From: Alphaproteobacteria bacterium | GTDB lineage: Bacteria; Pseudomonadota; Alphaproteobacteria; JAUXUR01 | Direction: 5' to 3' | NCBI GenBank assembly: GCA_030696155.1 | Contig: JAUYSY010000088.1 | Coordinates: 7,014-71,013, forward strand | DNA: 64,000 nucleotides | Shown: one piece after another, positions 105 to 33,915 of the stretch | How positions within the stretch are numbered: the stretch's first letter is position 1 | Layout of the letters: the number at the start of each line of letters is the position of its first letter | The notes under the pieces: model-generated | Told to the model about the DNA's origin: nothing | The model's database searches: none | Seen by the model: the letters and a program-made list of their open reading frames with translations, nothing else | Made by a program: the position numbers and the translations under genes

Positions 105-1664
105 TTAATGTTCAGAATAATTTACACTAATTGTATTTATGTGATCAAACATTTTATAGCTATAACGTACAGGAATCTTTATAGAACAATTTTTCAACGT
201 CTTTATAATAATATCATCAACATAAAAGTTAATTTTATTTAAAGAATTTAATATCTCAATCTTAATTTTAATAACACCATCCCTTTTATTAACATAAAAA
301 GCATATTGACCATTAATTTTAATTGAGTGAATTCTTCCATATTCATTTAAATCAATGTTGCCACTTCCTTCAGCTTGATTCCAAAGATCTCTAAAATTAC
401 CGCTCTTTCCAGAAGTGGATATAAACATATATTCGTCAAATGGCACCATATGATACACTCTTTGTCCAAATTCATTGTATTCAAATTTCCATTCATGTCT
501 TTTGATAATATTTGCATAGGGTGCTTCTAATTTATTGAAAGCCGGATAGGTAAAACAACGCATTTCAGGGGTCCAATCCAAGGTATTTATATCTTTTTTA
601 TAAACCTCTCCCCAAGGCCAAATTCCAACATATATTGATCCGCCATAACGAACCATAACCATCAATTCTCTCTCGTTTTCTGAAACAGGATTAAGAATAG
701 GTGGTTCCATTGTATCTATTTGTTTATCATCTATTATTTTATGGATGTGTCCTGATGGATAATGTCCATATAGCATTTCACCGTCGAGTTTTAAAGCACA
801 GTAAAGTTGATTACTGATTCTATCGTAATTAGTACCTATACACTTTATTCCATTTTCGGATGCTTTATATATCCATCCATGAGAAGTGCATAAAATAAAT
901 TTATTAAATTGACAAGAAATACAATATAAAAAATCATCTTTATCTTGAAGTCTTGATGCAAATAAAAATTTCCATTTGTTTCTAGCAACGTTAAATTTAT
1001 AAATTTTTAATGCAGAAAATCCAATACCATCGGGATCAGATTCTGGATTCACAACAACATTTAAACAAACATAATCTCCAGATAATAAATACTTACCTAT
1101 TATTCCTGGTGAACCTTCTTTCAAATCTGGAAAGTCAGTGAATTGAATAGTCTTTCTGTTTTGAGTTAAAGTCGTATCATTAGAAAATGTATAATAAGGG
1201 CTAAATTGTATTTCATCTAAATTAAAAAATCTATTTGTGTCTATGTCGTATTGAGACAAAAAGACATTTTTTTTAGTTGATAATGGATAAGCATATAAAC
1301 GCCCATCCTGAACCATAAGGCCAGTTCCCGTTGAGTCTTCAAAGGGATTATTATATAAAAAACAATCTTTAGTTATTATATTTAGAAATTCAGGATGAAT
1401 AGAAAAAATAATTCCATATGGATTTGAGGATCTGGTTGTTTGCCAAGAAAATAAATGAGAAATCGAAAAAATAATTTTATTGTTCATATCCACAAAATCA
1501 AAGATATTATCTATCTTATTTTCTGATAAATTTTTATTATCAATTTCAAATTCAATAACAATATCTTTAACAGCAAAAACATTAAAACTAAAACTAAAAC
1601 TAAAAAATAAGATATATAAATATTTAAACATTAAAAACCTCAACAAGTTATATTGTAAATACAA
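105..1664 (-). CDS. Family-A paralog 1: hypothetical, probably secreted protein (~500 aa); function unknown
   Basis: Long ORF. The N-terminus after internal Met (~1631) is hydrophobic and signal-peptide-like (MFKYLYILFFSFSFSFNVFA). It shares conserved blocks (WQTTRSSNPYGI, SPYYTFSNDT, LYGHYPSGRIH, QQIDTMEPPILNPV, GIWPWGEVYKK, EFGQRVY, NEYGKIHSIKINGQY) with ORFs 9793..11280 and 32392..33915. Confidence 0.6.
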   Translation of the reverse strand: MYLQYNLLRFLMFKYLYILFFSFSFSFNVFAVKDIVIEFEIDNKNLSENKIDNIFDFVDMNNKIIFSISHLFSWQTTRSSNPYGIIFSIHPEFLNIITKDCFLYNNPFEDSTGTGLMVQDGRLYAYPLSTKKNVFLSQYDIDTNRFFNLDEIQFSPYYTFSNDTTLTQNRKTIQFTDFPDLKEGSPGIIGKYLLSGDYVCLNVVVNPESDPDGIGFSALKIYKFNVARNKWKFLFASRLQDKDDFLYCISCQFNKFILCTSHGWIYKASENGIKCIGTNYDRISNQLYCALKLDGEMLYGHYPSGHIHKIIDDKQIDTMEPPILNPVSENERELMVMVRYGGSIYVGIWPWGEVYKKDINTLDWTPEMRCFTYPAFNKLEAPYANIIKRHEWKFEYNEFGQRVYHMVPFDEYMFISTSGKSGNFRDLWNQAEGSGNIDLNEYGRIHSIKINGQYAFYVNKRDGVIKIKIEILNSLNKINFYVDDIIIKTLKNCSIKIPVRYSYKMFDHINTISVNYSEH

Positions 1665-2096
1665 ACTATTTTACAAAATAAAGAATAATAATTTATTTAT
1701 TGTATACACAACAAAAAGAAATGTCAATAAAATTGACATTATTGCTAAGGTATGCTTATTAAAAATTTTAATAAACGTTTCTTTTTTGCAAAAATTCTTC
1801 CGCATATATCGGTGAGTGCATTTTCAAAAATTGCTAAAAGGAAGATTATCAAGAAAAGTTCAGGAGTAATTTCCGGAACTTCGAAAAAATTACTGAGGGT
1901 ATCATTTTTATGATAGAGAATTTTTTAGCACTACCAGAGATAATGTTGCAGACAATATTATCAATAACCATATCGACAATCTTCAAACGCAAAAAAGTCA
2001 TCTAATATGAAAATATTTCATTAGAATGATACAGACTTCCAGCAAAGATTCTAACCTGCCAGATTCAGGCGGTATGGGAATTCATAATTTTTTTAA

Positions 2097-3419
2097 TTAT
2101 TCAATTTCAATTTTTTTAATTATTATATTTTTTGGATAGTCAACACATAATTTTATTAATACATTATGCTCCCAATTATTTGTTATAATAATTGTTCGTT
2201 CTTTTCCATTAATACCAAAAAGTTTATTTTTTTTAATTGGTATTTTCTTTTTTTCTAGTCCAATTTTTTCTAAAAATAAATCAAAAATACTTCTATTAGA
2301 ATTATTTTTTGGCATAAAATTTATTTTAATACCTCCAATTCCACCAACAACTAGTTTAATTTTTTTTGCATTTTCAATTTCTATTGTTTCATCAGCGAAT
2401 ACAACACCATCCAAAGTAGAATTGTTCCATAAATCTTCAGATCTGCTATGTATTTTAACAAATGGTTTTTGGTAATCAATATTTTTTGAAAATTCTAATC
2501 TATCTGATATTTTTGTACTTAAAATTTTCAAATCTAAATCTAAATTATTTTCTTTTTTTGAAGTAAACATTAACCTAAACGGTTCTTCTGTTTTTATAAA
2601 TGAATCTTTTATTTCATTAATGCCTTTTTTAATATAAAAGGTATTTAATTTACTGGATGAAATAATTTCACCTAATTCATTGTAGCTTAAATAATAAGAG
2701 AATAATTTGTAATCACTATTAGAATATACTTTAGTTGAATATGTATAATTATATTTACCTTTTTGTTTTAATTGGTAATTTTCGTAACTATTTGGAGAAT
2801 AATAATAATCCTCATTTTCATTGCTTAATGAAAATGATTTTTTAGAATAATCCATTTGATTTAAAATTTCTTCAAATATTTTTTTTATTGATGGTTTAAT
2901 TTTTTTTATTTTGATGTTGTCGACAAGCTGTTCATTAAAATTTTTATTTAATTTTATAATTTTCCAACCCGCTTGATTGAAAACAACTTGAGACAAATGC
3001 GGATCGTTCAACAAATCGTATAATTTTGTAGAATACAAAGTAGGGTCATTATAATCATTAATCAAAAAATAAATAAAATCGTTTTCTATAAATTTATTGA
3101 ACAAATCTTCTGTGCTTTTATTTGATTTATTTAATATTTCGTATATTTGTTGACTATATAAATGAAACGGTGTTGGTTTCATGTATATAAGCTCTGCTTG
3201 TCTCATTGCTACTACTTTATTTTTACCAATAATAGAATTAACAGCTTTAATTACAAAAGATAAAGAATTATTTCCATGTAAGATTTTATGAAAATCCGAA
3301 TTATAAAAGGCATACGATTTTATATTTTTATAAAAATGTATAATGGGTATACTTGATAAAAGTACCACAAAAAAACAAAAAACAATGTATTTAAGTTTTT
3401 CTAAAACGAATGATGCCAT
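2097..3419 (-). CDS. Single-pass membrane protein with large extracytoplasmic domain; conserved partner of the GT-C-like gene (paralog of 19497..20777)
   Basis: One N-terminal TM helix. NDYNDPTLYSTKLYDLLND and AGWKIIKLNK motifs are shared with 19497..20777 and with the C-terminal domain of 29002..31029. The start overlaps the upstream GT-C gene by 29 nt. Confidence 0.6.
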   Translation of the reverse strand: MASFVLEKLKYIVFCFFVVLLSSIPIIHFYKNIKSYAFYNSDFHKILHGNNSLSFVIKAVNSIIGKNKVVAMRQAELIYMKPTPFHLYSQQIYEILNKSNKSTEDLFNKFIENDFIYFLINDYNDPTLYSTKLYDLLNDPHLSQVVFNQAGWKIIKLNKNFNEQLVDNIKIKKIKPSIKKIFEEILNQMDYSKKSFSLSNENEDYYYSPNSYENYQLKQKGKYNYTYSTKVYSNSDYKLFSYYLSYNELGEIISSSKLNTFYIKKGINEIKDSFIKTEEPFRLMFTSKKENNLDLDLKILSTKISDRLEFSKNIDYQKPFVKIHSRSEDLWNNSTLDGVVFADETIEIENAKKIKLVVGGIGGIKINFMPKNNSNRSIFDLFLEKIGLEKKKIPIKKNKLFGINGKERTIIITNNWEHNVLIKLCVDYPKNIIIKKIEIE

Positions 3420-4830
3420 ATCTAGAAAATACCTTTTCAGTAAATAATGATCCTATTAAAGCCATATGCAAAATAGGCTGTAGCATGTATCTATGGTTAT
3501 GTAAGAAGATATCTATACCTATAAAAGAGGCAAAAAGAACACCGAGATAAAACATAAAAACTATTAAAATTGAAAAATCTAAAAAAGTATTAATTTTAAA
3601 AATAGTATTAATTTTTCTTTTAATATAAATGATACATGCAGGAATGGTAATAAGATAGAAAAATCCAAAATTTCTATATTCAAAAAACATTTTTCCAAAT
3701 CCATAAAAGAATTTTTCAGAGAAAGAAGACACATCTCTATCTAGTTTTCTAAAATGAGTAAAAGCTTCTTTGTTTTCTTTTGCAATATCCATTGTATAAA
3801 GATCACCGAATATAGATCCTAATACGTCATATATTTTTATAAAATCAAGAATAACAACAGATAAACATACTAAAAAAGAAACACAAATATAAGTTATTGT
3901 TTTTATTAATTTTTTTCTATTTTTTATAAATACTATTGTAAATAAAATAAACAATGTTAGAATCCCAGAGCTGTGGACAAACCATGATAAACCTATTGAT
4001 AAACCCAATAATATGTAATTTGAATAATTATCTCTTTTGATGGTTAAGTAGGCAAATAAAGAGGCTGAAAAAAATGTTAAACACCTTATAGGGTCAATAT
4101 GAAAACCAAAAGACATCAAAAAGAAAAATGGAAAACTTAATACAAGAAATGTTGCAATAAAAGGATTTTTTATATGTTTCTGATAGGTTGATATTTTTAT
4201 TAAGATAAATGAAATAATAATAGGAACCATTATTACAAAAAATTTAGAATTTAAATTTTGAATATCAACATCAAGTAAGACTGCACCAAATGCCAGGTAT
4301 GAAGGAAAACCAAGGGGATGTGTAAGGGGTAGAACAAAACCTTTTATAGCATCTTTAGAAGGATAATCATATATAAAGCTTTTGCCTAAGATCAATCTTG
4401 AAATATGAAAATACTCTATTGAATCGTTTTCGATAACTGGAAAAAAAACACAAGATAAAATTAAAAATAAAAGCAAAACAACAACAAAAAACAAAACAAA
4501 AATATTTTTCAAATTATATTTTAAAGGTAAAGTATAATTATTAACAATAAACAATTTTAATTTTTTTAAATAAAATAAAGAATAAAAAAAGAATGGAAGT
4601 GTCGTTATAGAAAACAATGTATAAAAAGATTGTTCATTAAGAATTCTAGTGAATAACAAAAAAACAAAAGAAACAAAAGGGATTCCAATACCTAAACATG
4701 CACAGAACAAAAATCTTTTTTCTATTTTTGTTGCATCATAAGGAATACATATATTATAAAATGTAAATGGTATAAATATTGTTATAGCTAATATTTTTGA
4801 TATTTGAATTAGTATATCAATAAAATTCAT
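3391..4830 (-). CDS. Polytopic membrane protein, GT-C fold glycosyltransferase-like (ArnT/PMT/Gtr-type); paralog of 18097..19539 and 29002..31029
   Basis: More than 10 predicted TM segments. The first loop carries an acidic ENDSIEY motif followed by a conserved HPLGFPSYLAFG block. The same arrangement recurs in two paralogs (GNDPLQY...HPLGYPGLLAWG and ENDALEY...HPLGYPSLLVFQ). Confidence 0.55.
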   Translation of the reverse strand: MNFIDILIQISKILAITIFIPFTFYNICIPYDATKIEKRFLFCACLGIGIPFVSFVFLLFTRILNEQSFYTLFSITTLPFFFYSLFYLKKLKLFIVNNYTLPLKYNLKNIFVLFFVVVLLLFLILSCVFFPVIENDSIEYFHISRLILGKSFIYDYPSKDAIKGFVLPLTHPLGFPSYLAFGAVLLDVDIQNLNSKFFVIMVPIIISFILIKISTYQKHIKNPFIATFLVLSFPFFFLMSFGFHIDPIRCLTFFSASLFAYLTIKRDNYSNYILLGLSIGLSWFVHSSGILTLFILFTIVFIKNRKKLIKTITYICVSFLVCLSVVILDFIKIYDVLGSIFGDLYTMDIAKENKEAFTHFRKLDRDVSSFSEKFFYGFGKMFFEYRNFGFFYLITIPACIIYIKRKINTIFKINTFLDFSILIVFMFYLGVLFASFIGIDIFLHNHRYMLQPILHMALIGSLFTEKVFSRYGIIRFRKT

Positions 4831-5001
4831 TTTGACCCTGCAAAAAAACCATCCTTATTGTTTTACATGATTAATATCAATGTTTCAAGGTTAAAATAAA
4901 TTTCATAATTTTCTGGTTTTTCGATTTGGTAAAAACTGAATGTTAAAAACAAGTGAAACTCCATGGGGCAACCCCCGTGGTGTTTCGTTAGAACAATAAA
5001 T

Positions 5002-6569: not shown

Positions 6570-7375
6570 TATTTTTTCCGCATATATTTTATTGTATTCT
6601 TTAAAGCCACAGATGCAATATCCATTGAAAAAGATAATATATGTGAAGAAAAAGAATGAGACCATCTTTCTGGATGAGTTTGGATGATAATGTTATTAAA
6701 TTCTACATTATTTTTATTTTTGTAAATAAAGTCGATAAGACTGGACGTGCTTTTTAAGTTTGATAAGTCTAATCCATTTTTTTGAACATTATCTCTTAAG
6801 TTCGATTTTGTATTTCCCCAACTACGTGATGTATCTGTAAAATATTGAACTTTTTTATAATCAATCGAAATATAAGGTTCAGCAATAATTCCATTGTTTG
6901 TAAAGTCAAATTTTTTCCACAAATCTCTATTATCATATTTTGATAATGGACTACCGTGCATACATATTGTTTTTATACCTACTATTTTTCTAAAATTTTC
7001 AAGTTCACTTTTAAACAAATCATATGCTTTGGAGTAATCTCCTTTTGACTTTGAAAGTGTTTCGTAATGATACCCAATTTCATGCCCCAGAAGTTCAATT
7101 TTTTTAATAAGTTTTTCATTAAAAACGATAGGAATATGCCTAAAATAATAGGTTGATTTAATAGAAAATTCATTTTCTAATTCAGCCATTTTAAATGCAT
7201 TATAAGGAATTCTATCAACATCATGACGCATAATGATGCATTTCTCATTTTTTAATTCATTATAATTTTCATAAAATGATTTAAAATCAAAAAATTTATA
7301 CCCCATTTTTTGAAGGGAAAGGAAAAGGACTTTGTATTGATCAAGTGTAAAATCTTTAATATAATTTTGGGGCAT
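6569..7375 (-). CDS. Putative polysaccharide deacetylase-like (CE4-like) protein
   Basis: MRHDVDR motif near the N-terminus and downstream GHEIGYHYE His-containing block resemble divergent NodB-homology deacetylases. Weak. Confidence 0.35.
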   Translation of the reverse strand: MPQNYIKDFTLDQYKVLFLSLQKMGYKFFDFKSFYENYNELKNEKCIIMRHDVDRIPYNAFKMAELENEFSIKSTYYFRHIPIVFNEKLIKKIELLGHEIGYHYETLSKSKGDYSKAYDLFKSELENFRKIVGIKTICMHGSPLSKYDNRDLWKKFDFTNNGIIAEPYISIDYKKVQYFTDTSRSWGNTKSNLRDNVQKNGLDLSNLKSTSSLIDFIYKNKNNVEFNNIIIQTHPERWSHSFSSHILSFSMDIASVALKNTIKYMRKK

Positions 7376-9176
7376 TTTTTATAATTTCTATTGCATGATT
7401 TAAATCAAAGCCAACAACGCCTGCATATTCTTTCATAGACTCAAACCTTGGTTTGTTATCAATATTAATTTTGTCCATAGCCTCTTCTCTTGTAATAAGA
7501 CCTTGACGAATCTGTGAGCTTCTAAAGGTATCGTTTTCACTAAAACCAGCCATCTCCATATAAATATAATTGTAAAAAGCAGCAGTTCCGTCGCCTATTC
7601 GCCAAGTAGTATCAGAAGATTTTTCTGTTTCCCAATTATAATTATTTTTTAAAACATCAATAAGATGTTTTTCATCCCAATCTATATAATCGTAAATGGA
7701 ATGTATATTATGTTTTAATATATACGCACAATAAAAAGCAAATGCAGTATCGTATAAAGAAGAATTAAAATATCTCACATTTTTTAAATATTCTAAAAAG
7801 AAATATTGAACCATTTTAATTTTTTGAAGCTTAGGAACATATGTATACCAGCCATTTGATTCTTTTACACCACAAAATCCTGATTTAAATCCACTTTGCT
7901 CCATCTTATTTCCAGCAAAAAAGACTAAATCTATATTTAGATTTTTTGAAATAACTTGTGGATGGTAAAAATATTCTTTATCACCTGCCATTAATAATGT
8001 AACCATTCCTAATGATGGTCTCTTAAGCCAGGCTAATAAATTCTTTTGAACATATTTTCTTTTTTTTGGAATATCTGCTGAAACAAGTATATTTTCAACA
8101 CCAAGCTGACCGCACATTCTTGCAATATTACGTCTAGCAAGATCTGTAACCATGCCCCAGTCATAAGTATAAGTAACGGGATTCATACCGAGCTCTACTT
8201 TTAAGACATGAAGGGCGTAAGAGCTATCACGGCCACCACTAAAAGCAAGTATACAATCAGGCGATCCATCATTTTTCTTATGTTTATCACATAAAGCCCT
8301 TAAAGCATCAATACCTAACGGTTTGTAAGGAATATAGGTATTGCAAATAGAACAAACACCATGCGCATCAAATTTAATTCCTGGAAAAGTTTCAGGAAGT
8401 ACGCATTTAGAGCACCTTTTAAGATTTATTTTTTTTATGTTATTTTTGTTTATATCTATTAATTGGTATTCTTCTTTTTTTAATTCTATTTTTTTAATAT
8501 CGCCTTTTTTTAGTTGATGTACATTTATATCGTTAAAATATTTTTTAGAAATATTTTTGATAAATGTTTGCTGAGAAGCAAAAACAACCGCATTATTTTT
8601 ATCTTCTAAATAGTATAAAGATCCAGTATTTGTGCTAAGTGTTAAAATGTTTTCTTTTTTAAAAAGGCACGCTAAGGATGCATCTCCCTCAATTATTGAG
8701 TAGAAATCATTTAAAGCACTCTCAATTGATGTTTCTTTAATTTTTTTATCTAAAAATTCTGGAATTACGGCGGTGTCAAGTTCTGATTTTGGAGATTGAT
8801 TTAAATGATCTTTCCAAATTTTTTCATAATTGCAAATTATACCATTATGAATTACTACTATATCTTTTTCTAAAACGGGTTGATTATTAAAAACATTAGA
8901 ACGATCGCCATTCGTGCAAAGCCTTGAATGTCCTAAAATCAATAAATCTCCGTTTTTTATATTAACTTCATCTAGAAGGTTTATTAACTCCTTCTCTTTC
9001 ATTAGCTCTAAAACAGATCCCTTGTGTCTTAAGATTTTAATTTTTCCTTGATGGCGTATTGCTATACCACTTGCTTCTTTCCCACGAGAGTTGGAAAGTT
9101 TAGCCAGATCAAATAGTAACTTTTTCCACTGTCCATCAAACTCTTTATCTATATAAAACCCAAATACGCCACACAC
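7356..9176 (-). CDS. Fusion amidotransferase: class-II (Ntn, Cys2) glutaminase domain + zinc ribbon + PP-loop ATP pyrophosphatase of the WbuX/PseA N-acetyl-sugar amidotransferase type
   Basis: Starts MCGVFGFY (Cys2 nucleophile). Then CSKCVLPETFPGIKFDAHGVCSICN (CxxC..CxxC). Then AFSGGRDSSYALHVLK (SGGxDS PP-loop). Paralog of 20777..22612. Confidence 0.6.
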   Translation of the reverse strand: MCGVFGFYIDKEFDGQWKKLLFDLAKLSNSRGKEASGIAIRHQGKIKILRHKGSVLELMKEKELINLLDEVNIKNGDLLILGHSRLCTNGDRSNVFNNQPVLEKDIVVIHNGIICNYEKIWKDHLNQSPKSELDTAVIPEFLDKKIKETSIESALNDFYSIIEGDASLACLFKKENILTLSTNTGSLYYLEDKNNAVVFASQQTFIKNISKKYFNDINVHQLKKGDIKKIELKKEEYQLIDINKNNIKKINLKRCSKCVLPETFPGIKFDAHGVCSICNTYIPYKPLGIDALRALCDKHKKNDGSPDCILAFSGGRDSSYALHVLKVELGMNPVTYTYDWGMVTDLARRNIARMCGQLGVENILVSADIPKKRKYVQKNLLAWLKRPSLGMVTLLMAGDKEYFYHPQVISKNLNIDLVFFAGNKMEQSGFKSGFCGVKESNGWYTYVPKLQKIKMVQYFFLEYLKNVRYFNSSLYDTAFAFYCAYILKHNIHSIYDYIDWDEKHLIDVLKNNYNWETEKSSDTTWRIGDGTAAFYNYIYMEMAGFSENDTFRSSQIRQGLITREEAMDKINIDNKPRFESMKEYAGVVGFDLNHAIEIIKNAPKLY

Positions 9177-9792
9177 ATCTATTCTCTGTAATTTTAGTTA
9201 TAAAACGATATCGTCAATCTATACAAAAACAAAAAAAAATCAACTAAATTCTCTAAAATTAATACTTAAAAAGTTTTATATAAAAAAATACGCACATTTA
9301 ACAGTTAAGTGCACAATCAGGATTTATTTTTATAAGCCAAGTAACTCAAGATTACCCTAGCAAAAAGGAGAACATCTTATAACGAATTATCACCACCTGA
9401 TCTATGAAAAACGTTGCCAGATTTATGCACTTTTGAAAAGATGTATAGGAGTATTGTCTATAGCTAAAGAGTTGGAACATAGTGCGTCTACTTTTCTTAT
9501 TGAAGAAAAATTAACAACAGAGCAATAAAGTCCGAAACAAATTTCAGGTTCGCTTAAAAATAACACGAAACATCAATAAGCTATGAATCTATTTTTCTTG
9601 AGCTTGTTTGAATGCTCTTTTTTTATAATTATTTTAATTTTTTTTCCAATAATCTTTTTTTAATGCTACAATCAACCTGGAAGGTCTCAGTTTTATCATG
9701 TATTTAAATCTAAAGATTTAAATACTAAAATTATACGGGATATATATGACTAGTTTTTTAAAAAAATTATATATTTTACTACCATTAACATA

Positions 9793-12413: not shown

Positions 12414-12428
12414 ATAAAACCCTAAAAC

Positions 12429-12444: not shown

Positions 12445-12445
12445 A

Positions 12446-22612: not shown

Positions 22613-22622
22613 AGATTAAATC

Positions 22623-23570
22623 ATGTACAAAAACAAAAAAATAGCGGTTGTTGTTCCTTCTTTTAACGAAGAAACACAAATATCAAAAGTTATTACGACG
22701 ATGCCTGATTATGTTGATCATATTATTATTATTGATGATAAAAGCACAGATAATATGGCGGCTGTTGTTGAAGAGCATTGTAAAACAAACCCTAAAATTG
22801 TGCTAATTCGTCATGAAATTAATCAAGGTGTTGGCGGGTCAATTGCAACAGGTTATAAATGGGCACGTGATCATGAATGTGATGCAACGGCTGTTATGGC
22901 TGGTGATGGTCAGATGGATCCAAATGATTTAGCAGAGCTTTTAGACCCGGTTGTATCTGGCGAGGTTGATTATTCTAAGGCAAATCGTTTAATTTATGCA
23001 AAAGCTTACGAAATTGTGCCCAAGGTTCGTTTTTGGGGAAATGCTATTTTATCATTACTTACAAAAATAGCATCTGGCTATTGGCATATATCTGATTCAC
23101 AAACAGGTTATACAGTTATTAATCTTAAAGCGCTTCAAATAATCGACTGGGATTTAATGTATAAACGTTATGGCCAACCAAATGATTTGCTAGTAAGGTT
23201 AAATATTCATAATTTTAAAGTGCGCGATATTCCTCAAAAACCTGTTTATAACGTTGGGGAACAATCAAAACTTAAAATTAGAAAAGCCATTTTTACAATA
23301 AGTATTTTATTACTGAAAAAGTTTTTCTGGAGATTAAAAGAAAAATACATTATAAGAGATTTTCATCCTCTTGTTTTTTTCTATTTTTTCGGATTTTTTT
23401 CACTAGGCTGTTCTTTTTTGTTTTCAATTCGATTTTTCAGATTATGGTTTGTTAATGGAGAGGTGCCAGAGGTCACATTGATTTTGTTATTATTCATGCT
23501 TGCTGGCGGTGTTCAAGCCATTTTTTTAGCCATGTGGATGGATCAAGATTATAATAAGGAATTAAGGTGA
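22623..23570 (+). CDS. GT2 polyprenyl-phosphate sugar synthase (GtrB/ArnC/DPM1-like) with C-terminal TM helices
   Basis: IAVVVPSFNEE...IIIIDDKSTD N-terminal GT-A signature. 315 aa with 2-3 C-terminal hydrophobic helices, as in GtrB/ArnC. Confidence 0.85.
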   Translation: MYKNKKIAVVVPSFNEETQISKVITTMPDYVDHIIIIDDKSTDNMAAVVEEHCKTNPKIVLIRHEINQGVGGSIATGYKWARDHECDATAVMAGDGQMDPNDLAELLDPVVSGEVDYSKANRLIYAKAYEIVPKVRFWGNAILSLLTKIASGYWHISDSQTGYTVINLKALQIIDWDLMYKRYGQPNDLLVRLNIHNFKVRDIPQKPVYNVGEQSKLKIRKAIFTISILLLKKFFWRLKEKYIIRDFHPLVFFYFFGFFSLGCSFLFSIRFFRLWFVNGEVPEVTLILLLFMLAGGVQAIFLAMWMDQDYNKELR

Positions 23571-25384
23571 GATTATTTTTTTTAATTTTTTTTTCGTTAT
23601 CATTTGGTTATAATGTTAAAGCTGAAGATTATGAAAAATCTTGGCATAATGTTCCTTTTGTTTCATTTGATAACGAAAAAAAAACAAGTCTTGAGTTTAA
23701 ACCACAAGATATTCTTTTCAGAATAAAAAATGAAAATGATTATATAAATCTTGAGCCCAAAAATCTTCCTTTGAAAATAATTGAACACAAAGAAAATAAA
23801 ATTATTTTTTCAAAAAAATTATTTGATGGAGAAAATCGTATTTCTATTTTTAATAAAAATACTTTTTTAAAAGATATTGAACTCCCAAAAAATTTAAAAA
23901 AATTCTTATTTATGAATGCAGCAATTGGTGAAAAAGAAATTGTTGTTATTTATTATAATCCTGTCTCTTTTAGGCACTTTTTCTATCGAATTAATCTATC
24001 TGATTATTCTTTTGATGAGTTATGGGTAAGAGAAGCTGATTGGGGTAATAAGCATATTTCGAATCATTCATTATGTATTAATGCATTTCATTTTAATGAT
24101 CCAGAATATGGTAATAAAAAAGCTATTCATTTTATAGCTGGAAATGTTGTTTATATTTATAGAAACATTATAACACCAAGTTTTGATCGATTTGAATTTC
24201 CAAAAAATTATGAGTTTTTAACATATCGGCAAGAGGGTGATAGATTCATAGGGTTTTTTAAAAAATCTAATTTTTCAGATAAAATAGATAATACAAAATT
24301 AATACAATCTATTGATTTAAAAACACGTAATGAAACGAATGATACTTTTGAATTCTCAAATGATAAAATTGAGCATTTTTTTGAGTCTTTTGAGCCATCT
24401 GGTATTCTTAATATGGGGTGTAATAATGAAGAAGGTTTGGTGCCATGGTCTCAAACATATTATTTAAACGGTCTTATTAATTTGGTACAAAATTGGCAGA
24501 TGTTTGAAAAACATCTTTCTGATGAAATAATCTTTAAATTAAAAAATAGATTAACAATTGAAATATATTTGTTAGATAGACTGATAAATGAATATGGTCT
24601 TATCTCTTTTAGGTATTCTGTTGATCGTTTTCCAATTTTAGGAACGCTGCATTGTGCTAGGATTTATAGAGTATTAAGACGATATGAAGAACTTCTTATA
24701 TCTCCGTTTAAATTGACATCAAAAAATTATATTGATGATTTATTTTCACAAAAAATAGATCAAAAATTTTTTGACACTATAGTTAGATCAAGTGATGATA
24801 ACACGGGTCTTAAAAAGGGAGAATGTTATTTAACAGCAAAAAAAAATGCGCCTTTTCCACATGATGGATTGAATCTACCCTATAATTATATGAACTCTCT
24901 TACAAGTGAATTTCCCTATATGAATTTAAAAAAGGACTCTCCTCAAGAAAATTTTATTAAAGATGCATCCATTATTTTTCTTAGAAATGAAGAATTTTAT
25001 AAACATTTCCCTCAAAATTTCGAATGGCACTATTCTTGGGGTAAAATGAGGGAGGGAAGAGAGGCAAAAGAAGATCTTTCAATTAATTTACCTTCTTATC
25101 CCCCTGATAATTCAATGGCGCATATATCCTATAAATCTATTGATTTAATAGGTCTTTTGACAGTTTTGAAATTTCATCCAGATGTTTTTCCAAAAGGCTT
25201 TAAAGAATATGCGCTTGATGCCGTTAAAAAAGGGGGTGTATATCCTTTTGTCTATGAAGAATTAAAAGATTATAAATGTGATTTAGATCAAGATGTTGCT
25301 CATTATTATTCTTTTCCATTGGCACCATGGGAATTACAAAGTGCTTCTATTGCTTGGCTTTATTTACTAAATAAAACAAAATGA
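23567..25384 (+). CDS. Hypothetical secreted protein (605 aa)
   Basis: N-terminal signal-peptide-like MRLFFLIFFSLSFGYNVKA. Translationally coupled to GT2 upstream and to the flippase-like gene downstream (4-nt overlaps). Confidence 0.55.
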   Translation: MRLFFLIFFSLSFGYNVKAEDYEKSWHNVPFVSFDNEKKTSLEFKPQDILFRIKNENDYINLEPKNLPLKIIEHKENKIIFSKKLFDGENRISIFNKNTFLKDIELPKNLKKFLFMNAAIGEKEIVVIYYNPVSFRHFFYRINLSDYSFDELWVREADWGNKHISNHSLCINAFHFNDPEYGNKKAIHFIAGNVVYIYRNIITPSFDRFEFPKNYEFLTYRQEGDRFIGFFKKSNFSDKIDNTKLIQSIDLKTRNETNDTFEFSNDKIEHFFESFEPSGILNMGCNNEEGLVPWSQTYYLNGLINLVQNWQMFEKHLSDEIIFKLKNRLTIEIYLLDRLINEYGLISFRYSVDRFPILGTLHCARIYRVLRRYEELLISPFKLTSKNYIDDLFSQKIDQKFFDTIVRSSDDNTGLKKGECYLTAKKNAPFPHDGLNLPYNYMNSLTSEFPYMNLKKDSPQENFIKDASIIFLRNEEFYKHFPQNFEWHYSWGKMREGREAKEDLSINLPSYPPDNSMAHISYKSIDLIGLLTVLKFHPDVFPKGFKEYALDAVKKGGVYPFVYEELKDYKCDLDQDVAHYYSFPLAPWELQSASIAWLYLLNKTK

Positions 25385-26607
25385 ACAAGGCCTTTATTTA
25401 TAATTTTGGAAGCATTGGTGTATTAGGCATTGTTGGTCTTTTGCTTAATATTCTTATGCCTATTTTTTATGGACCAGAAGGATTGGGTCTTTTTAACCTG
25501 ATTATGGCTCTTTTTATTGTAGCCTCGCAATTTTCAGTATTTGGCCTTCATTATTCAACGCTTAAATATACGGCCGAACATACTGAAAACTATATCTTAC
25601 AAAAAACAATTTTAAGTACGGCTCTTTTGAGTTGTGCCATTATGTGTGTTCCCTCTCTACTTTTTTGTTTTGTTATTCCATTCATTATTCCTGGACTTTT
25701 TAAATTTGAAAATGCACAATTTTGTTGGTTTATAGCAATTCCAGGTCTTCTTTTTTTTAGTTTTAATAAAATCTTTCTTTCTTTTATGAATGGTCAAAAA
25801 TTTATGGAGCGATATGCTATTGGTATATCGCTCAGATATATTTTTATGTTACTAACATTTTTGCCATTTATGGTGTTTAGTCTCGATTTAAAATTTATAT
25901 CTTTTGTTTTTTTGATTCCTGAAGTTTTGCTATTTATTTGGTGCATATTTTATAATTATAAATATATAAAAATATCCTATTTAAATTTTGATTGGATTCA
26001 AAAACATTTTACATTTTCTATAAAAAGTTTTTTAGCAGGCGCATCAATTGAGCTCAATAGCAGGGTAGATGTTTTAATTTTATCTTATTTTCAAACAGAA
26101 AAAGAAGTTGGTATATATAGTTTTGCACTTTTTTTTGTAGAAGGTATTTTACAAGTAATTTCAGTTTTTAGAAATATATTAAATCCATATTTAACAGAGC
26201 TTTATTATAAAAAAGATATTGATGAATTATCAAAAAAAATAAAAAAATTTGGTAAAAACTCACTTCTAATATCTTTTGTATTATCTATTTTGTGTGTGCC
26301 ATTATTTTTAATACTTTATTATTTTTTTAATGAAGAATTTTATTTAGAATCTTTGAATGTTTTTTTAATAATTATATTTGGAGTTACAATATCATCATTT
26401 TATCTACCCATTCAATTTTTTGCAAATCAAATAGGTAATCCTGTTCAACAGACAAAGATAAATCTTTTTATATTAGGATCTAATATCATACTTAATATGA
26501 TTTTTGTTTATTTTTTAGGCCTTTATGGTGCTGCTATAGGAACATCACTTAGTTTTGTTTCTTCATTATTTATTATTAGAAATTACATGAAACGGTTTGT
26601 TTCTTAA
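25381..26607 (+). CDS. Polytopic membrane protein, Wzx/MOP-type oligosaccharide flippase-like
   Basis: ~12 predicted TM segments. The C-terminal GLYGAAIGTSLSFVSSLFII region is typical of polysaccharide-biosynthesis (Wzx-like) flippases. The assignment is inference. Confidence 0.45.
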   Translation: MNKAFIYNFGSIGVLGIVGLLLNILMPIFYGPEGLGLFNLIMALFIVASQFSVFGLHYSTLKYTAEHTENYILQKTILSTALLSCAIMCVPSLLFCFVIPFIIPGLFKFENAQFCWFIAIPGLLFFSFNKIFLSFMNGQKFMERYAIGISLRYIFMLLTFLPFMVFSLDLKFISFVFLIPEVLLFIWCIFYNYKYIKISYLNFDWIQKHFTFSIKSFLAGASIELNSRVDVLILSYFQTEKEVGIYSFALFFVEGILQVISVFRNILNPYLTELYYKKDIDELSKKIKKFGKNSLLISFVLSILCVPLFLILYYFFNEEFYLESLNVFLIIIFGVTISSFYLPIQFFANQIGNPVQQTKINLFILGSNIILNMIFVYFLGLYGAAIGTSLSFVSSLFIIRNYMKRFVS

Positions 26608-27557: not shown

Positions 27558-27565
27558 TTTCTCTC

Positions 27566-28963: not shown

Positions 28964-29001
28964 AGATCCTCGTGGTATGGTTTTTTTTTAAAAAGGCCTA
29001 A

Positions 29002-31029
29002 TTGATGAGTTTATATACCACAATTTTTCTATCTTGTATGTTTTTTTTCGTTTTACCTTTTTTTATGTCTTGTATTTTCGATCAAAAAAACAGATTAAAA
29101 ACAATCATTTCATTTGGTTTGATGCCTCCAATTTTAGGACTTATTGTTTATTATTTATTCTCTCTTTTGCCAGGGAAAGAAACATATTTTTATTTAAATT
29201 CAATATTATTGATATTCATTTTTGCTTTATTAGGTTTTTTCTTAAAAAGAAAAAAAATAACTTTTGAACGTGAAATATATGCAGGAATTCTTTTGTTTGT
29301 AATATTTTTTGTTATGTTGCTAGGGTTACCTCTTTACGAAAATGATGCTCTTGAATATGCCAATATGGCTAATATTTTTTTTAGAGATAAAAGTTTTTCT
29401 ATATATCCTTTTGTAGAAGCAGATCCAATAACTGGATTTTATACACCGATTCGGCATCCTTTAGGATATCCTTCTCTACTTGTATTTCAATTGCTTATAG
29501 GATTTAAGGTAGAATTAGCGGTAAAATTTACTAATGCTTATTATATCGTTCTTTTTGTCTTTTTGATTTCTAAATATGTTGGGCGTTATGGGATATTATA
29601 CATATTATCAGTTCCACTATTTATTTATGTTTTTTCGACATGTCAAATTGATGTTTATCGTATTTTCTTATTCATCTTATCAATTTGTATTTTGTCCGAA
29701 TTTTTTGAACGCAAACAAAGTATTTTTTGGACGTCTTTAACACTTGGATTAACGCTTCTGGCACACTCTATTTCTGTTTTATGTCTAATGTTTATAGGGT
29801 TTGGCTTTGTTTATATGCCTAAAAAAGAATGGTGGAAATTAGCCATTGTTTGTATTGGATCAATTTTGATTGGAGGTGAGGTCTATATTAAAAACTTTCT
29901 TGAATTTGGAAAAATAGTAACAGACACTAATCCAGTATGGGAGCTTGATAATATTAATGAAAAAGCAGATCTTGCTTTTAGAAGGCGTATAGATACGACA
30001 TTTAATTGGATTTTATTTGGTCTTCTTCAGGGGTTTACGAAAATACATTTTTTTGGGATTCATTTTTATTTAGCATTTTATGCAATAATCAAAAATGGGT
30101 TTAAAAAAAGGTCAATTCTTTACACGATGTCTTGCTTTGGCGTCTTTTTGTTTTTTTTGATTATTGTATTTTCTGGAAATCTAGGCGCTAAAAATCCAAG
30201 GTATTTTTTAACGATAATTCCTTTATTATTTTTTATATATCAACCTGTTATAAGCAATTCATTGCGTAATATATATATTGTTTTTACGTTGTTTTCTTTG
30301 TATGGGTTTAAATTTTTTTCCAATTGGTCAACATATTCGATTAATGATCCTATTCATCAACATGTAAGTAAAAAATTCTTTGATCAATTGAATGTATTAA
30401 AATTAGATGGAAAAGTATTGGCTTTTGAGCAAGAGCTTTTTGTGTTTTACGGCAAAAGTAAAATTCTAAAGGATTTAGATCCTGTTATGATAGATTTTTA
30501 TAAAATGAATACAAAAGAAAATGCACTTAAATTTTTAGAAAAAAATGATATAAAGTATATATATTTATCACCATATATGCCGGCAACTTTCTATAATTCA
30601 TATATAGGTGAAATTGCGGGAAATCCTACATATTCTAAATTACTCATAGATGAATCGGGATATAGGCTTTTTAAAATAGATAAAATAAAAATGATAAGTC
30701 CTGTTGTTGAGTTGAAAAATAACCTTATTATTGAAGACGTTAATAATATATTTTTTAAAAATATATATCAAAAAAATCAAATTTATAATTTCAAATATAT
30801 AGATAATTATGATAGTAATTATGACGTATGTATGAATTTAGAATTTGATGGTAATGGATTTGCTGAAATTTATGTAGGAGATGTCAGTTATGGGCGTGTG
30901 GGCGTGCTTAAAAAGAAAAACTTTTATCTTCAGTTTAAGCAAAAAAATGGGCTGGATCATTTAACAATTTCTACTTATAAAAATACTTTAATGAATAAAC
31001 ATAGCATATTATATTGTAAACATGATTAA
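29002..31029 (+). CDS. GT-C fold membrane glycosyltransferase-like protein fused to a C-terminal partner-type domain (third paralog)
   Basis: ENDALEY + RHPLGYPSLLVFQ in the N-terminal membrane part. The C-terminal soluble part carries NPTYSKLLIDESGYRLFKIDK, which matches the DUF partner motifs of 2097..3419 and 19497..20777. Confidence 0.55.
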   Translation: MMSLYTTIFLSCMFFFVLPFFMSCIFDQKNRLKTIISFGLMPPILGLIVYYLFSLLPGKETYFYLNSILLIFIFALLGFFLKRKKITFEREIYAGILLFVIFFVMLLGLPLYENDALEYANMANIFFRDKSFSIYPFVEADPITGFYTPIRHPLGYPSLLVFQLLIGFKVELAVKFTNAYYIVLFVFLISKYVGRYGILYILSVPLFIYVFSTCQIDVYRIFLFILSICILSEFFERKQSIFWTSLTLGLTLLAHSISVLCLMFIGFGFVYMPKKEWWKLAIVCIGSILIGGEVYIKNFLEFGKIVTDTNPVWELDNINEKADLAFRRRIDTTFNWILFGLLQGFTKIHFFGIHFYLAFYAIIKNGFKKRSILYTMSCFGVFLFFLIIVFSGNLGAKNPRYFLTIIPLLFFIYQPVISNSLRNIYIVFTLFSLYGFKFFSNWSTYSINDPIHQHVSKKFFDQLNVLKLDGKVLAFEQELFVFYGKSKILKDLDPVMIDFYKMNTKENALKFLEKNDIKYIYLSPYMPATFYNSYIGEIAGNPTYSKLLIDESGYRLFKIDKIKMISPVVELKNNLIIEDVNNIFFKNIYQKNQIYNFKYIDNYDSNYDVCMNLEFDGNGFAEIYVGDVSYGRVGVLKKKNFYLQFKQKNGLDHLTISTYKNTLMNKHSILYCKHD

Positions 31030-32254
31030 TGAAAATATAAGCATTTTTTCTGAAAATTTATTAAAAATAAAAAATATAAATCTTATATCGATTGGTTTGT
31101 TTTTTAATAAAATATTAACATCGATAAGTTTATTTTTTATAGCTAAATTCTATTCTCCACAAGAATTTGGTGAGTTTGGATATTATATGTCGATCTTGTC
31201 AATATTATTTCCATTTTCAATATTAGGAATGGAAAATTTTATATTTATAAACAAAAATAAGTCAAAAACAATAAATAATTTTATTTATATTCATTCTTTT
31301 TTCTTTTTTTTATTTTTATCTATAATGTTTTTAGTTTTTTTTAGTGAAAAAAATTATCTATTTCTTATTATGCCGTTAAATTTATTTTTAATGACTATAT
31401 TTGATGTGATTTTAAATAATTTTATAAAAGATAAAAAGTTTAGTTTAAATTTATTATATAATTTTTTGTTTTGCATAATTACAATTGCCATTCAAATTTC
31501 TAGTGTTTTGTTTTTTAATAAAAATGTTGCATATTTAATTATTGGTTTTATGGTTGGTTATTTATTACCATTAAGCTTTATTTTTTTTATAAAAGAAAAC
31601 TCGTTTTCATTTAAAAAAAATAATATTCTATTTTTTTATAAAAAATTTTTATTAAAAAATAAAAATTATATTTTTATGTATTTAATTCTAACAACATTAG
31701 ATTGCTTAATTCAGTTTTTTCCATTTTTTTATATTAAAAATACATTCGGATTTGAAGATTTAGGGTCATATTTCTTATGTAACAAAATTTTTTATTTACC
31801 AATAGCAATTATTGGTATGTCTCTTTCTAAATATTTTTTAATTGAAATGAGTAATCCTAAAATTGTTATAAAAAATATTTATTTTTTTATAATAATTTCA
31901 TTATTTCTAGCAATTTTAATTTATGGATCATTGTTTATTTTTAATAAAATAGGTTTGTTTGTTTATTTTTTAGGTCAACAATGGATAGAATTAGAATATT
32001 TGATAAATATCAATATATTAAAATTTATTTTTGAATTTTTTGTTTTTCCATTTATTGGAATATTTATTATTAAAAATCAACAAAAAAAACTAATTTTTAT
32101 AAAAGTATTATTTTTAATAATATTATTCTTAGGGTTTTTGTTTATAAAAGAATTAAGTTTTATTGATGGTATAATATTTTTGAATGTTTTAAATATTATA
32201 TTTTATATAACAATATGTTGCTATTGCTTCAAAATTTTATTCAATAAATCTTAA
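31022..32254 (+). CDS. Polytopic membrane protein, possible second Wzx-like flippase
   Basis: 410 aa with ~12 TM and a size and layout similar to 25381..26607. Low-complexity, AT-driven sequence. Confidence 0.35.
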   Translation: MINENISIFSENLLKIKNINLISIGLFFNKILTSISLFFIAKFYSPQEFGEFGYYMSILSILFPFSILGMENFIFINKNKSKTINNFIYIHSFFFFLFLSIMFLVFFSEKNYLFLIMPLNLFLMTIFDVILNNFIKDKKFSLNLLYNFLFCIITIAIQISSVLFFNKNVAYLIIGFMVGYLLPLSFIFFIKENSFSFKKNNILFFYKKFLLKNKNYIFMYLILTTLDCLIQFFPFFYIKNTFGFEDLGSYFLCNKIFYLPIAIIGMSLSKYFLIEMSNPKIVIKNIYFFIIISLFLAILIYGSLFIFNKIGLFVYFLGQQWIELEYLININILKFIFEFFVFPFIGIFIIKNQQKKLIFIKVLFLIILFLGFLFIKELSFIDGIIFLNVLNIIFYITICCYCFKILFNKS

Positions 32255-32391
32255 GGATTTTAATATTTTTTTCTTTGTTAACTTTTCATATTTTTTATAT
32301 TACGATGAAAGCATGTGTTAAAAAATGAACATTCTTGTAATGTCATACGCACTTATAAAAATATAAGAAAAATTAATGATAGTGGGTTTGT

Positions 32392-33915
32392 ATGATTAAA
32401 ATAGTAACTGTAATTTTTTTTTTCATAATTTTTCAAGCAGTTGCAGTCAAAAATCTAACAATTGAATTCAAAATAAACAGCCAGGATTTAATAGATAATA
32501 AAGTTGAAAATATTTTTGAATTTACAGATGAATTTGGAAAAAAAATAATTTCTATTTTTTATTTATTTTTTTGGCAAACAACAAGAGCTTCAAATTCATT
32601 TGGTATTACCTTTTCTGTTCATCCTGATTTTATGCAAAACGTTTCTGAAAATAATTATTCCTATAACAATCCTTTTGTAGATTCAACTGGCAATGGTCTT
32701 ATGGTGCAGGATAGAGATTTATATACTTATCCTTTAAGTACTAAACAACAGGTTTTTCTATCAAAATATGATTTGGTTAATAATGTTTTTGTTAATTTAA
32801 ATATATCTCCTTTTAGTCCTTATTACACGTATTCTAATGATACAATATTAAGCGGAGATAGAAAAAATATTACATCTAATATATTTCCAACATTGACAGA
32901 AAATACTCCTGGTGTTATTCAATCGTATCTTTTGTACAAAGATTATATTTGTTTGAGTGTTCTAGTTGATGCAGCGCATGATTTAGTTACTGGTACAGGA
33001 TTTTGTGCCATCAAATTGTATAAACTAAATACTGATCGTTGGTTATTTTTATGGGCATCTAGACTTCAAGATGATGATGATTATCCATATTGTATTGCAT
33101 ATCAATCTAATGCTTTTATTTTTTGTACACACCTTGGTTGGATATATAGTGTTTCTGAAAGCGGCGGCATAAAAAATATAAAACTAAATTATGAAAAAAT
33201 TAGCAATCAAGTATATTGTGCTTTAAAAGTCAACGGTGAAATGCTGTATGGACATTATCCATCTGGTCGTATTCATTCAATAACAGATACGCAACAAATA
33301 GATACAATGGAGCCACCTATTCTCAATCCTGTTGGATCAAACGAGAGAGAATTAATGGCCATGTGCCTTTATGCTGGCTCTATTTATGCTGGAATTTGGC
33401 CTTGGGGTGAAGTTTATAGAAAAAATATTAATACATCCGTTTGGAGCCAAGCAATGAGATGTTTTAGTAAACCTGCTTTTAATCAACTTATAGAAGCGCC
33501 TTATGCGGATACTGTTAGAGAAAAGGGATGGACATTAGATTATAATGAATTTGGGCAAAGAGTGTACCAAATGCTTCTTTTTGATGAATATCTTTTTATG
33601 TCTACTTGTGGAAAAGATGGTTATTTTAGAGATTCTTGGAATGAAGCTGAAGGAGATAGTGATATTGATTTAAATGAATATGGAAAAATTCATTCAATTA
33701 GAATTAATGGACAATATACTTTTTATCTTGATCCATTAAACGATTTTACAACAATTAAAATTGAAATATTAAACACTTCAGGAAATATTAATTTTTATAT
33801 TAACAATATTCTTTCAAAAACATTAGAAAATTGTGTTGTTAATATTCCAGATAATTATAATTTTAAATTTTTTAATTACAGTAACCCAACTAATGTTTCT
33901 TTAAGTTCAGATTAA
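32392..33915 (+). CDS. Family-A paralog 3: hypothetical secreted protein
   Basis: Signal-peptide-like N-terminus MIKIVTVIFFFIIFQAVA. Same conserved blocks as the other two paralogs. The C-terminal half is ~80% identical to 9793..11280. Confidence 0.6.
   Translation: MIKIVTVIFFFIIFQAVAVKNLTIEFKINSQDLIDNKVENIFEFTDEFGKKIISIFYLFFWQTTRASNSFGITFSVHPDFMQNVSENNYSYNNPFVDSTGNGLMVQDRDLYTYPLSTKQQVFLSKYDLVNNVFVNLNISPFSPYYTYSNDTILSGDRKNITSNIFPTLTENTPGVIQSYLLYKDYICLSVLVDAAHDLVTGTGFCAIKLYKLNTDRWLFLWASRLQDDDDYPYCIAYQSNAFIFCTHLGWIYSVSESGGIKNIKLNYEKISNQVYCALKVNGEMLYGHYPSGRIHSITDTQQIDTMEPPILNPVGSNERELMAMCLYAGSIYAGIWPWGEVYRKNINTSVWSQAMRCFSKPAFNQLIEAPYADTVREKGWTLDYNEFGQRVYQMLLFDEYLFMSTCGKDGYFRDSWNEAEGDSDIDLNEYGKIHSIRINGQYTFYLDPLNDFTTIKIEILNTSGNINFYINNILSKTLENCVVNIPDNYNFKFFNYSNPTNVSLSSD

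Follow-up and report, generated by a model that had tools for sequence, protein, structure and literature searches.

The 64,000-nt stretch analysed here (contig JAUYSY010000088.1 of the metagenome-assembled Alphaproteobacteria bacterium genome GCA_030696155.1, positions 7,014 to 71,013; hereafter the window) carried, in a glycan locus occupying its left 34 kb, three paralogous genes, A1, A2 and A3, which encode predicted exported proteins with a beta-propeller fold. The three genes were mosaics, segments having been exchanged between the copies by gene conversion or recombination, and all three were under purifying selection. The explanation that best accounted for the observations as a whole, with a probability of roughly 0.55, is that these are exported propellers acting on the polysaccharide of the locus, that the gene conversion is old, that purifying selection maintains the genes, and that A2 is a dispensable copy.

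Full-length alignment of the A1, A2 and A3 translations gave pairwise protein identities of 64%, 58% and 60% (70–74% in DNA), bearing out the three homologous open reading frames (ORFs) reported by a first-pass annotation made from the sequence of the window. Each of the three ORFs was full-length and had a start region of its own. The search for further copies covered the window, where neither tblastn with the three proteins nor the hidden Markov model (HMM) of the family gave a fourth copy, a fragment, or any related exported protein. The true start of A1 is probably ATG 1631 and not TTG 1664, because GAGG is located 8 nt upstream of the former and a 99% identical ortholog (P0002) begins at that Met. 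The A1 leader, MFKYLYILFFSFSFSFNVFA followed by VKD, contained the one N-terminal hydrophobic segment of the protein and ended in VFA before VK; the A3 leader, MIKIVTVIFFFIIFQAVA followed by VKN, ended in AVA before VK. Both were cleavage sites of the AXA type and not lipoboxes. Within the A1 leader there was an (AGTTTT)3 repeat (window positions 1577–1594), present as two copies in another strain, with in-frame loss of Ser-Phe; within the A3 leader there was a run of ten T (T10, positions 32414–32423), one of three A/T runs of at least 10 in the window, and each of the four A3 variants seen had it in frame. A Cys-rich YCISCQ...CTSxGWIY segment, previously described as common to the three proteins, was present in A1 and A2, but A3 reads YCIAYQ...CTHLGWIY and keeps three of the five cysteines, none of which was in the consensus of a 44-sequence family alignment.

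The mosaic structure had been proposed from the uneven identity between A2 and A3, given as about 45% in the N-terminal half and about 80% over the C-terminal 250 residues. The N-terminal part was indeed less similar, but the values were 51% and 69%; likewise, the nucleotide run at 10681–10860 that had been called near-identical to A3 was similar, but at 89% DNA identity. Repeat analysis placed it in a direct repeat (10576–10875 and 33187–33486) with 88% identity over 300 nt, and the best tracts were 88–91% identical in DNA, with a longest exact run of 33 nt. An inverted repeat (529–1250 and 10156–10877) was 79% complementary, and the repeat search of the window gave no long inverted repeats beyond those formed by pairs of paralogous genes, apart from two short pairs rich in A+T. 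All three pairs were more alike at alignment columns ~281–360, inside a core that is conserved family-wide (profile positions ~230–460), so that the higher C-terminal identity is partly ordinary constraint.

Constraint cannot alter which two copies group together, and the grouping was therefore tested directly, using sites at which one copy departs from a base common to the other two, with a chi-square over 30-codon bins and permutation. The three possible groupings were nearly equal overall (199, 165, and 167 sites), and they changed along the gene: A1+A2 dominated codons ~169–300, A2+A3 codons ~300–390, and A1+A3 codons ~420–450. This heterogeneity was significant at all sites (permutation p = 2e-4) and at third positions (p = 0.006). 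Maximal-segment tests gave p = 5e-4 for A1+A2 (82 sites for and 47 against), p = 5e-4 for A2+A3 (29 for and 11 against), and 0.065 for A1+A3; the individually significant tracts were those of A1+A2 at codons ~169–281 and A2+A3 at codons ~328–372. Synonymous divergence (dS) in the tracts was 0.35 for A1–A2, 0.49 for A2–A3 and 0.29 for A1–A3, compared to ~0.8–1.2 elsewhere, and in the same segments the dS of the pairs not involved stayed at 0.7–1.0. As dS fell only for the pair concerned and not for the others, the paralogs have undergone segmental gene conversion or recombination, as the first-pass annotation had suggested; the uniform divergence that it had named as contrary to its claim was not seen. 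It is most improbable that there was no recombination and that the uneven identity reflects nothing but stronger constraint on the C-terminal core: the conservation of this core across the family and the greater likeness there of all three pairs fit such an explanation, but constraint alters rates and not grouping, and the switch in grouping persisted at third positions and was accompanied by pair-specific drops in dS. Uneven identity between paralogs should thus be called mosaic only after a test of topology or of synonymous sites. A plausible sequence of events is that, after the duplications, short stretches were copied by gene conversion, between A1 and A2 at about codons 170–300 and between A2 and A3 at about codons 300–390. 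A mosaic of this kind is ordinary: old conversion is a common occurrence among paralogs that are retained in tandem under purifying selection, and no new mechanism of variation is called for.

The signal peptides ascribed to two of the copies were recovered as the hydrophobic leaders of A1 and A3; the reported absence of one from A2 hinged on one base in a T6A7 tract. The A2 frame continues upstream of ATG 9793, the start of the called ORF, and the A1 protein aligned to this frame from position 9769 (tblastn). Farther upstream, ATG 9746 opens a short ORF in another frame, MTSFLKKLYILLPLT and then a stop, which passes through the T6A7 tract. In an independent assembly of the same strain (L093, run SRR13727522), 10,624 nt matched the window with 0 mismatches and one gap, which was an eighth A in this tract. 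With A8, ATG 9746 reads MTSFLKKIIYFTTINIMLILNSFQNNA and then EC... directly into A2, a signal-peptide-like leader, and the L093 gene call begins exactly at the ATG matching 9746. The native start of A2 is thus likely to be ATG 9746, one base out of frame in the window assembly. The tract was one of 41 A/T runs of at least 7 in the compared L093 stretch, and the A7/A8 difference therefore reflects either an error of assembly or genuine slippage. In AT-rich assemblies from metagenomes, the apparent absence of a signal peptide can thus depend on a single homopolymer base. In another strain (L001 and L002), similarity to the window began only at 10048, with different sequence upstream and the gene called as 398 aa. 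The replacing sequence (L001 1–250) encodes what resembles, as read by eye, the C-terminal end of a transposase. The 5′ end of A2 in that strain would have been removed at an insertion junction. A2 retains every family-invariant residue and is therefore a recently dispensable or switchable copy, not a long-dead one; one base in the T6A7/8 run would set the leader of this dispensable copy in or out of frame.

The conversion tracts are old, because they have diverged by 10–20% in DNA since copying. Orthologs of A1, A2 and A3 in other samples had 98–99% protein identity and the same mosaic. The differences between strains were scattered single changes and not copies of another paralog, and no recent conversion between strains was visible when allelic differences were checked against the other paralogs. 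The check for recombination breakpoints across strains, which the first-pass annotation had proposed, thus gave the same mosaic in all orthologs and no new tracts. The ratio of nonsynonymous to synonymous divergence (dN/dS) was ~0.3 among the paralogs and, between strains, 0.16 for A1, 0.27 for A3 and 0.46 for A2, the between-strain values being based on few changes; all three genes are under purifying selection. One patch of A3 (33000–33299) was 95% identical between strains, compared to ~99% around it. Relative to L092, 15 of 21 A3 differences were in codons 217–306, and the same variant residues were present in P0003 and P0155. The patch, common to two other strains, suggests an allelic segment exchanged between strains.

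The paralogs had been likened to variable surface proteins, and an antigenic-variation system, in which surface proteins are diversified by ongoing conversion and possibly switched by homopolymers or a nearby recombinase, might be read into the different donor pairs per segment of the mosaic, the homopolymers in two of the leaders (A7/A8 in A2 and T10 in A3), a serine recombinase gene that starts 190 nt after the end of A3, and the polymorphic A3 patch. The likeness did not hold, and such a system is very improbable: with a dS of 0.3–0.5 the tracts are old, the orthologs are near-identical without new tracts, dN/dS is low between strains and between paralogs, and the T10 run was always in frame. 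In Neisseria pilE/pilS, Borrelia vlsE and Anaplasma msp2, there are likewise several paralogs with segmental exchange at one locus, but here there are three full-length genes and no layout of an expression site with silent cassettes, no hypervariable region, purifying selection, old tracts, and near-identical sequences between strains. Shuffling driven by the resolvase beside A3 acting as an invertase was also considered and rejected, as the repeat search of the window gave no long inverted repeats other than those given above. Furthermore, the genes that varied most between strains were not those of the propellers but neighboring genes for glycosyltransferases of the GT-C type and their partners. 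The most variable parts of the locus (18148–20847 and 2204–3403, compared to L001 and L091) corresponded to GT-C-like genes and adjacent genes for exported proteins. Identity fell to 76–85% in places, and to 90–93% in the gene for a 440-aa exported protein (dS 0.22), compared to 98–99% for the adjoining propeller genes, and the L001 counterpart of GT-C2 was called as only 368 aa. This variation looks like that of serotypes.

No named family included the three proteins. Pfam and NCBIfam gave no meaningful match, and a profile search against PDB sequences gave none at E ≤ 1, so that the clear match to a housekeeping enzyme family that the first-pass annotation had set against its proposal was absent from all three. 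In a word-indexed search of 5.8 billion clusters, a single sequence returned only three strain orthologs, and the 44-sequence alignment returned the same three. An exhaustive HMMER search with the three-sequence profile retrieved 229 cluster representatives at E ≤ 1e-3, of which 149 reached E ≤ 1e-10, mostly 500–530 aa in length, with matches concentrated on the core positions of the profile. The family motifs were GHYPxG, REAQT, GVWPWGE, NxWGQR and STSxK. Patterns from the three paralogs alone matched nothing in a scan of GTDB species genomes; with the GVWPWGE motif from the deeper alignment (G[VIL]WPW[GA]E[LV][WY]), 295 confirmed loci were found. Among the 80 of these that were listed, most were from Planctomycetota, Hydrogenedentota, Latescibacterota, Verrucomicrobiota and Armatimonadota, and one was from Legionella londiniensis. 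The sources gave no functional name, except for a fusion labelled 'family 10 glycosylhydrolase' owing to its GHL10 domain. As 35 of 44 aligned members had a hydrophobic N-terminal leader, several of them lipobox-like, the family is predicted to be usually exported, via a signal peptide or as a lipoprotein. In a neighbor-joining tree with 76 other members, A1, A2 and A3 formed their own long-branched clade, and the duplicates therefore arose within the lineage; they would be lineage-specific copies of one gene. In all, about 300 species genomes carry a family without a Pfam model, a solved structure or a name.

The AlphaFold2 (AF2) model, built on the 44-sequence alignment, was all-beta, with a pLDDT of 88.8 and a pTM of 0.91 (a three-sequence alignment gave an unusable model with a pLDDT of 39). 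It contained repeated four-stranded antiparallel blades, and Foldseek matched it to generic propellers, in agreement with the earlier guess of a beta-propeller; the predicted fold is accordingly of this class. Strand order in the model suggests about seven blades, at residues ~86–445, and about five further strands at each end (21–76 and 452–506; ~10 in all) may form a separate beta-sandwich. The closest solved propellers were BBS7 (6vbu_7), virginiamycin B lyase (2z2n_A) and BamB (9p1u_B), with 10–14% identity and TM-scores of at most 0.58. In contrast to Kelch, WD40 and PQQ-like propellers, the window proteins were matched by no propeller HMM, had the ~10 additional N- and C-terminal strands, and had motifs of their own. 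The Kelch models in particular had no match at E ≤ 1 in the three window proteins and faint ones (E ~1e-3) in one or two of the 44 family members. Invariant or near-invariant residues (A3 numbering) were Q273, Y275, E320, Q322, W336, W338, E340, R356, Q389, R390 and K408, and they fell at strand starts or ends in three consecutive blades of the model. In propellers, such strand-end positions usually form one face around the central channel, and the invariant residues may thus be placed on one face of the propeller.

The setting of the paralogs in a glycan locus was confirmed. Across positions 1–34000 the G+C content was 21–32% (28–41% farther right), and Pfam assigned genes to glycosyltransferase families GT1 and GT2, a canonical asparagine synthase, a Wzx-type flippase, MBOAT, and GNAT and FemAB-like acyltransferases. 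The locus encodes three AsnB-type proteins: the canonical asparagine synthase and two AsnB-like paralogs, in which the glutamine amidotransferase domain was matched and the Asn_synthase domain was not; the latter two may serve in uronic-acid amidation. It also encodes three mutually homologous multi-pass proteins of the GT-C/PMT_2 type. The one upstream of A1 had a weak match to PMT_2, a profile that presumably also picks up GT-C enzymes modifying lipids and polysaccharides, and its two paralogs (GT-C2 and the one upstream of A3) had 9–10 transmembrane (TM) segments. Together with the adjacent 440-aa protein, the one upstream of A1 is paralogous to GT-C2 and its neighboring 426-aa protein. Each of the two gene pairs preceding A1 and A3 (2097..4830 and 29002..32254) is on the strand of its propeller gene, with which it possibly forms one operon. 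Rfam and tRNA scans gave no match anywhere in the 64 kb.

Features of the window. Coordinates are window positions, with the strand in brackets; aa, amino acids; TM, transmembrane segments.
Feature	Position	Description
A1	105..1631 (-)	508 aa from ATG 1631; predicted exported beta-propeller paralog; ORF as listed 105..1664
A2	9746/9793..11280 (+)	Middle paralog; called ORF 9793..11280, 495 aa without leader
A3	32392..33915 (+)	507 aa; third paralog; identical to GenBank MDP3533147.1 (hypothetical protein)
A1/A2 conversion tract, A1 side	747..1100 (-)	Alignment codons ~169–300
A1/A2 conversion tract, A2 side	10306..10659 (+)	
A2/A3 conversion tract, A2 side	10576..10875 (+)	Significant core at alignment codons ~328–372
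A2/A3 conversion tract, A3 side	33187..33486 (+)	
T6A7 homopolymer	9754..9766 (+)	A2 leader; A7 in window (out of frame), A8 in L093 (in frame)
440-aa protein	2097–3419 (-)	Single N-terminal hydrophobic segment; on A1 strand, upstream of A1
GT-C/PMT_2-like membrane protein	3391–4830 (-)	~8 TM; PMT_2 E = 7.5e-5, 23.4 bits against a Pfam cut-off of 26.1
Second AsnB-like paralog	7356..9176 (-)	65% identical to 20777–22612; divergent neighbor of A2
Short ORF fragment	9380..9530 (+)	Upstream of A2; like N-terminal helix-turn-helix of a presumed IS30-type transposase
Core cassette common to other lineages	18097..26607 (+)	From Pfam, TM counts, and orthologs in L003 and L073
GT-C2	18097–19539 (+)	Core cassette
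426-aa protein	19497–20777 (+)	Core cassette; single N-terminal hydrophobic segment
AsnB-like protein	20777–22612 (+)	Core cassette
GT2	22623–23570 (+)	Glycos_transf_2 3e-20; two predicted C-terminal TM at residues 251–294
605-aa soluble protein	23567–25384 (+)	Between GT2 and Wzx; without Pfam match
Wzx	25381–26607 (+)	Core cassette
GT-C-like protein	29002–31029 (+)	~10 TM and a soluble C-terminal part; upstream of A3
12-TM protein	31022–32254 (+)	On A3 strand, upstream of A3

The link with glycan genes recurred in three loci from other lineages, the family members of which were scattered in the family tree. The closest homolog outside the lineage (P0004 in L003; 33% identity, 51% G+C) was flanked by a fusion of a GFO-oxidoreductase and a hexapeptide acyltransferase, and downstream of it were a GT2 (64% identical to that of the window), a large protein of unknown function, an AsnB-like protein (38–50%), DUF218, Wzx (33%) and a GT-C-like protein (27%). 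At L003 4199–7291 there was a 1030-aa relative (25%) of the 605-aa soluble protein, in the same position of the cassette, representing a second conserved protein of unknown function. In an acidimicrobiial locus (L073), the order was Wzx, family member, PMT_2-like GT-C (PMT_2 match at 3.7e-7), GT2 and AsnB-like, and the ORFs of the member and the GT-C overlapped. In Legionella londiniensis (L067), the member followed genes for an AsnB-like protein (42%), two ATP-grasp proteins and a transglutaminase-like protein, and it adjoined genes for a UDP-sugar dehydrogenase, an oxidoreductase and an aminotransferase. A census of neighbors at ~80 loci gave a heterogeneous picture, in which the wider family had no one partner that was conserved. 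With parts of a cassette at three loci and unrelated neighbors at most others, the glycan link is recurrent but not universal. Some distant members were fused or adjacent to GHL10, acetyl-xylan-esterase-like, LamG_3 or 3-keto-disaccharide hydrolase domains.

Taken together, these results are consistent with each paralog being an exported protein of ~490 mature residues with a propeller of about seven blades, to which the N- and C-terminal strands would probably add a beta-sandwich. The propellers would have an extracytoplasmic role on the polysaccharide that the locus produces and may bind, cut or modify this glycan at a conserved polar pocket on one propeller face, possibly alongside the GT-C glycosyltransferases whose genes are close to A1 and A3. 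Several observations weigh against this explanation. A2 is not adjacent to a GT-C gene, and its A7/A8 difference could be an assembly error. The placement of the invariant residues on one face was taken from secondary-structure order only. Other members of the family were mostly among unrelated housekeeping genes, with parts of a polysaccharide cassette at 3 of ~80 outside loci, and further fusions (peptidase M14, RidA, and DUF7133-HEAT-cytochrome c) were heterogeneous. Pfam, NCBIfam, PDB-sequence and structural searches gave no specific match to a characterized carbohydrate-active enzyme, lectin or carbohydrate-binding module (CBM) family. Finally, the GT-C paralogs were 26–34% identical among themselves, compared to 58–64% for the propellers; the GT-Cs being far more diverged, there was either no joint duplication of a module, or the propellers were later homogenized.

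Two alternatives share the export of the propellers and differ in what they would do. They might be protein substrates of the PMT_2-like GT-Cs, glycosylated after export from a polyprenyl-phosphate sugar made by the GT2, in the manner of protein O-mannosylation. A1 and A3 each have a GT-C gene a short way upstream on their own strand, the member in L073 overlaps the start of a PMT_2-like gene, the best Pfam match of the GT-Cs is a family of protein mannosyltransferases, and the GT2 has two C-terminal TM helices, which is the layout of polyprenyl-phosphate sugar synthases. Nevertheless, this role is unlikely, as the PMT_2 matches were weak and that in the window was below the Pfam cut-off, the family is conserved across phyla mostly without an adjacent GT-C, no Ser/Thr/Pro-rich acceptor region stood out by eye in the three translations, and about a dozen invariant polar residues across phyla suit a binding or catalytic site better. 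Alternatively, the propellers might be envelope scaffolds that organize assembly or export machinery without touching the glycan, in the manner of BamB, an eight-bladed PQQ-like propeller lipoprotein. BamB chains in BAM complexes were the top Foldseek matches, and the paralogs have export leaders and are encoded next to multi-pass membrane proteins. However, the BamB matches were weak (TM-score 0.34–0.46 and 10–12% identity, no better than those to eukaryotic WD40 proteins), and no NCBIfam or Pfam model for BamB or PQQ was matched. Invariant acidic, basic and aromatic residues across phyla would be unusual for a scaffold, and glycan-active domains are fused to, or located beside, some relatives; a scaffold is thus unlikely.

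Action on the polysaccharide of the locus accordingly remains the preferred explanation. A more specific version is rather unlikely: a free-standing propeller would bind or process the acceptor glycan for the GT-Cs, three copies of different specificity would match the three GT-C paralogs, and A2 would be switched by slippage in its T6A7/8 run. If the preferred explanation holds, the family would represent an accessory component that has been missing from the picture of glycan modification outside the cytoplasm, and a useful marker for finding such loci. Apart from this, a finding of some interest is the unnamed exported propeller family itself, which occurs across several phyla and is recurrently linked to polysaccharide clusters. 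Its occurrence in Legionella londiniensis, a culturable bacterium, makes the idea open to genetic testing.

The paralogs were located at the positions from which they had been said to bracket the locus, but this arrangement is partly an effect of the sequence ends: A1 is located 104 nt from the window start, two independent assemblies break 30–65 nt past A1, and all available assemblies stop just past it. Positions 1–96 of the window are flanked by an 11-nt inverted repeat (TGAAATAACTT ... AAGTTATTTCA), and in L091 the sequence just past A1 (3677–3738) is a 97% match to window 61276–61337 and not to window 1–103, a hint that A1 may adjoin a repeated or mobile element. Upstream of A2, the short ORF fragment was read by eye as ...YHHLIYEKRCQIYALLKR..., and its assignment to the IS30 type is presumptive. 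Downstream of A3, the G+C content rises from ~25% to ~35% at ~34000. The serine recombinase or resolvase gene there (34108–34677) had a between-strain dS of 0.35, compared to 0.03 for A3, and was followed, up to ~37400, by a metallophosphoesterase gene and an AbiEii/AbiEi toxin-antitoxin pair. The region 34000–37400 looks like the edge of a mobile segment.

Midway through the glycan locus there were also genes for ParB (11580–12413), ParA (12446–13426) and a protein of 367 aa (13840–14943), which has a DnaA_N domain at its C terminus and shares 27% identity with a hypothetical protein encoded by a 15-kb plasmid from Candidatus Paracaedibacter acanthamoebae. It is possible that the contig represents a plasmid or an integrated element; megablast of window 34000–58900 against plasmids gave no match. 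The right half of the window (38685–63990) was rich in mobile-element and conflict genes, including those for a 1408-aa haemagglutinin-repeat protein (38685–42911) followed by an Imm11 immunity protein (43123–44025), an Rpn-family nuclease (44574–45440), a 747-aa protein that has a YoeB-like toxin domain at its end (50389–52632), and a Tn3 transposase fragment (57973–58776).

Among known systems, AlgL, PslG and BcsZ are polymer-processing enzymes encoded inside exopolysaccharide clusters, and polysaccharide lyase families PL11, PL22 and PL24/25 are beta-propellers. None of these was matched by sequence and none was among the top structural matches. Like AlgL, PslG and BcsZ, however, the family protein is predicted to be exported and is encoded within a polysaccharide biosynthesis cluster. 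It clusters with genes of the uronic-acid or amidation type (AsnB-like, UDP-sugar dehydrogenase and aminotransferase), and its predicted propeller can be compared with those of the lyases in having conserved Arg, Lys, Glu, Tyr and Gln residues. A second comparison is with extracytoplasmic three-component glycosylation systems, in which a beta-rich periplasmic module of the GT-C serves to bind the acceptor glycan (PMC11127046). Like the GtrABC-type system and the GT136 system of Citrobacter youngae (PMC11127046), the window locus has a GT2 with two C-terminal TM segments, multi-pass putative flippases and three GT-C-like proteins; the GT2, with its Glycos_transf_2 match, had the features of the putative synthase of such a system. 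The GT-C assignments in the window are weak, with PMT_2 below the cut-off. As described in the literature, these systems consist of a synthase, a flippase and a GT-C, to which an epimerase and a CBM fused to the GT-C are added in some cases, and no free propeller is listed among the components (PMC11127046), whereas the window locus encodes a propeller that is free-standing and predicted to be exported.

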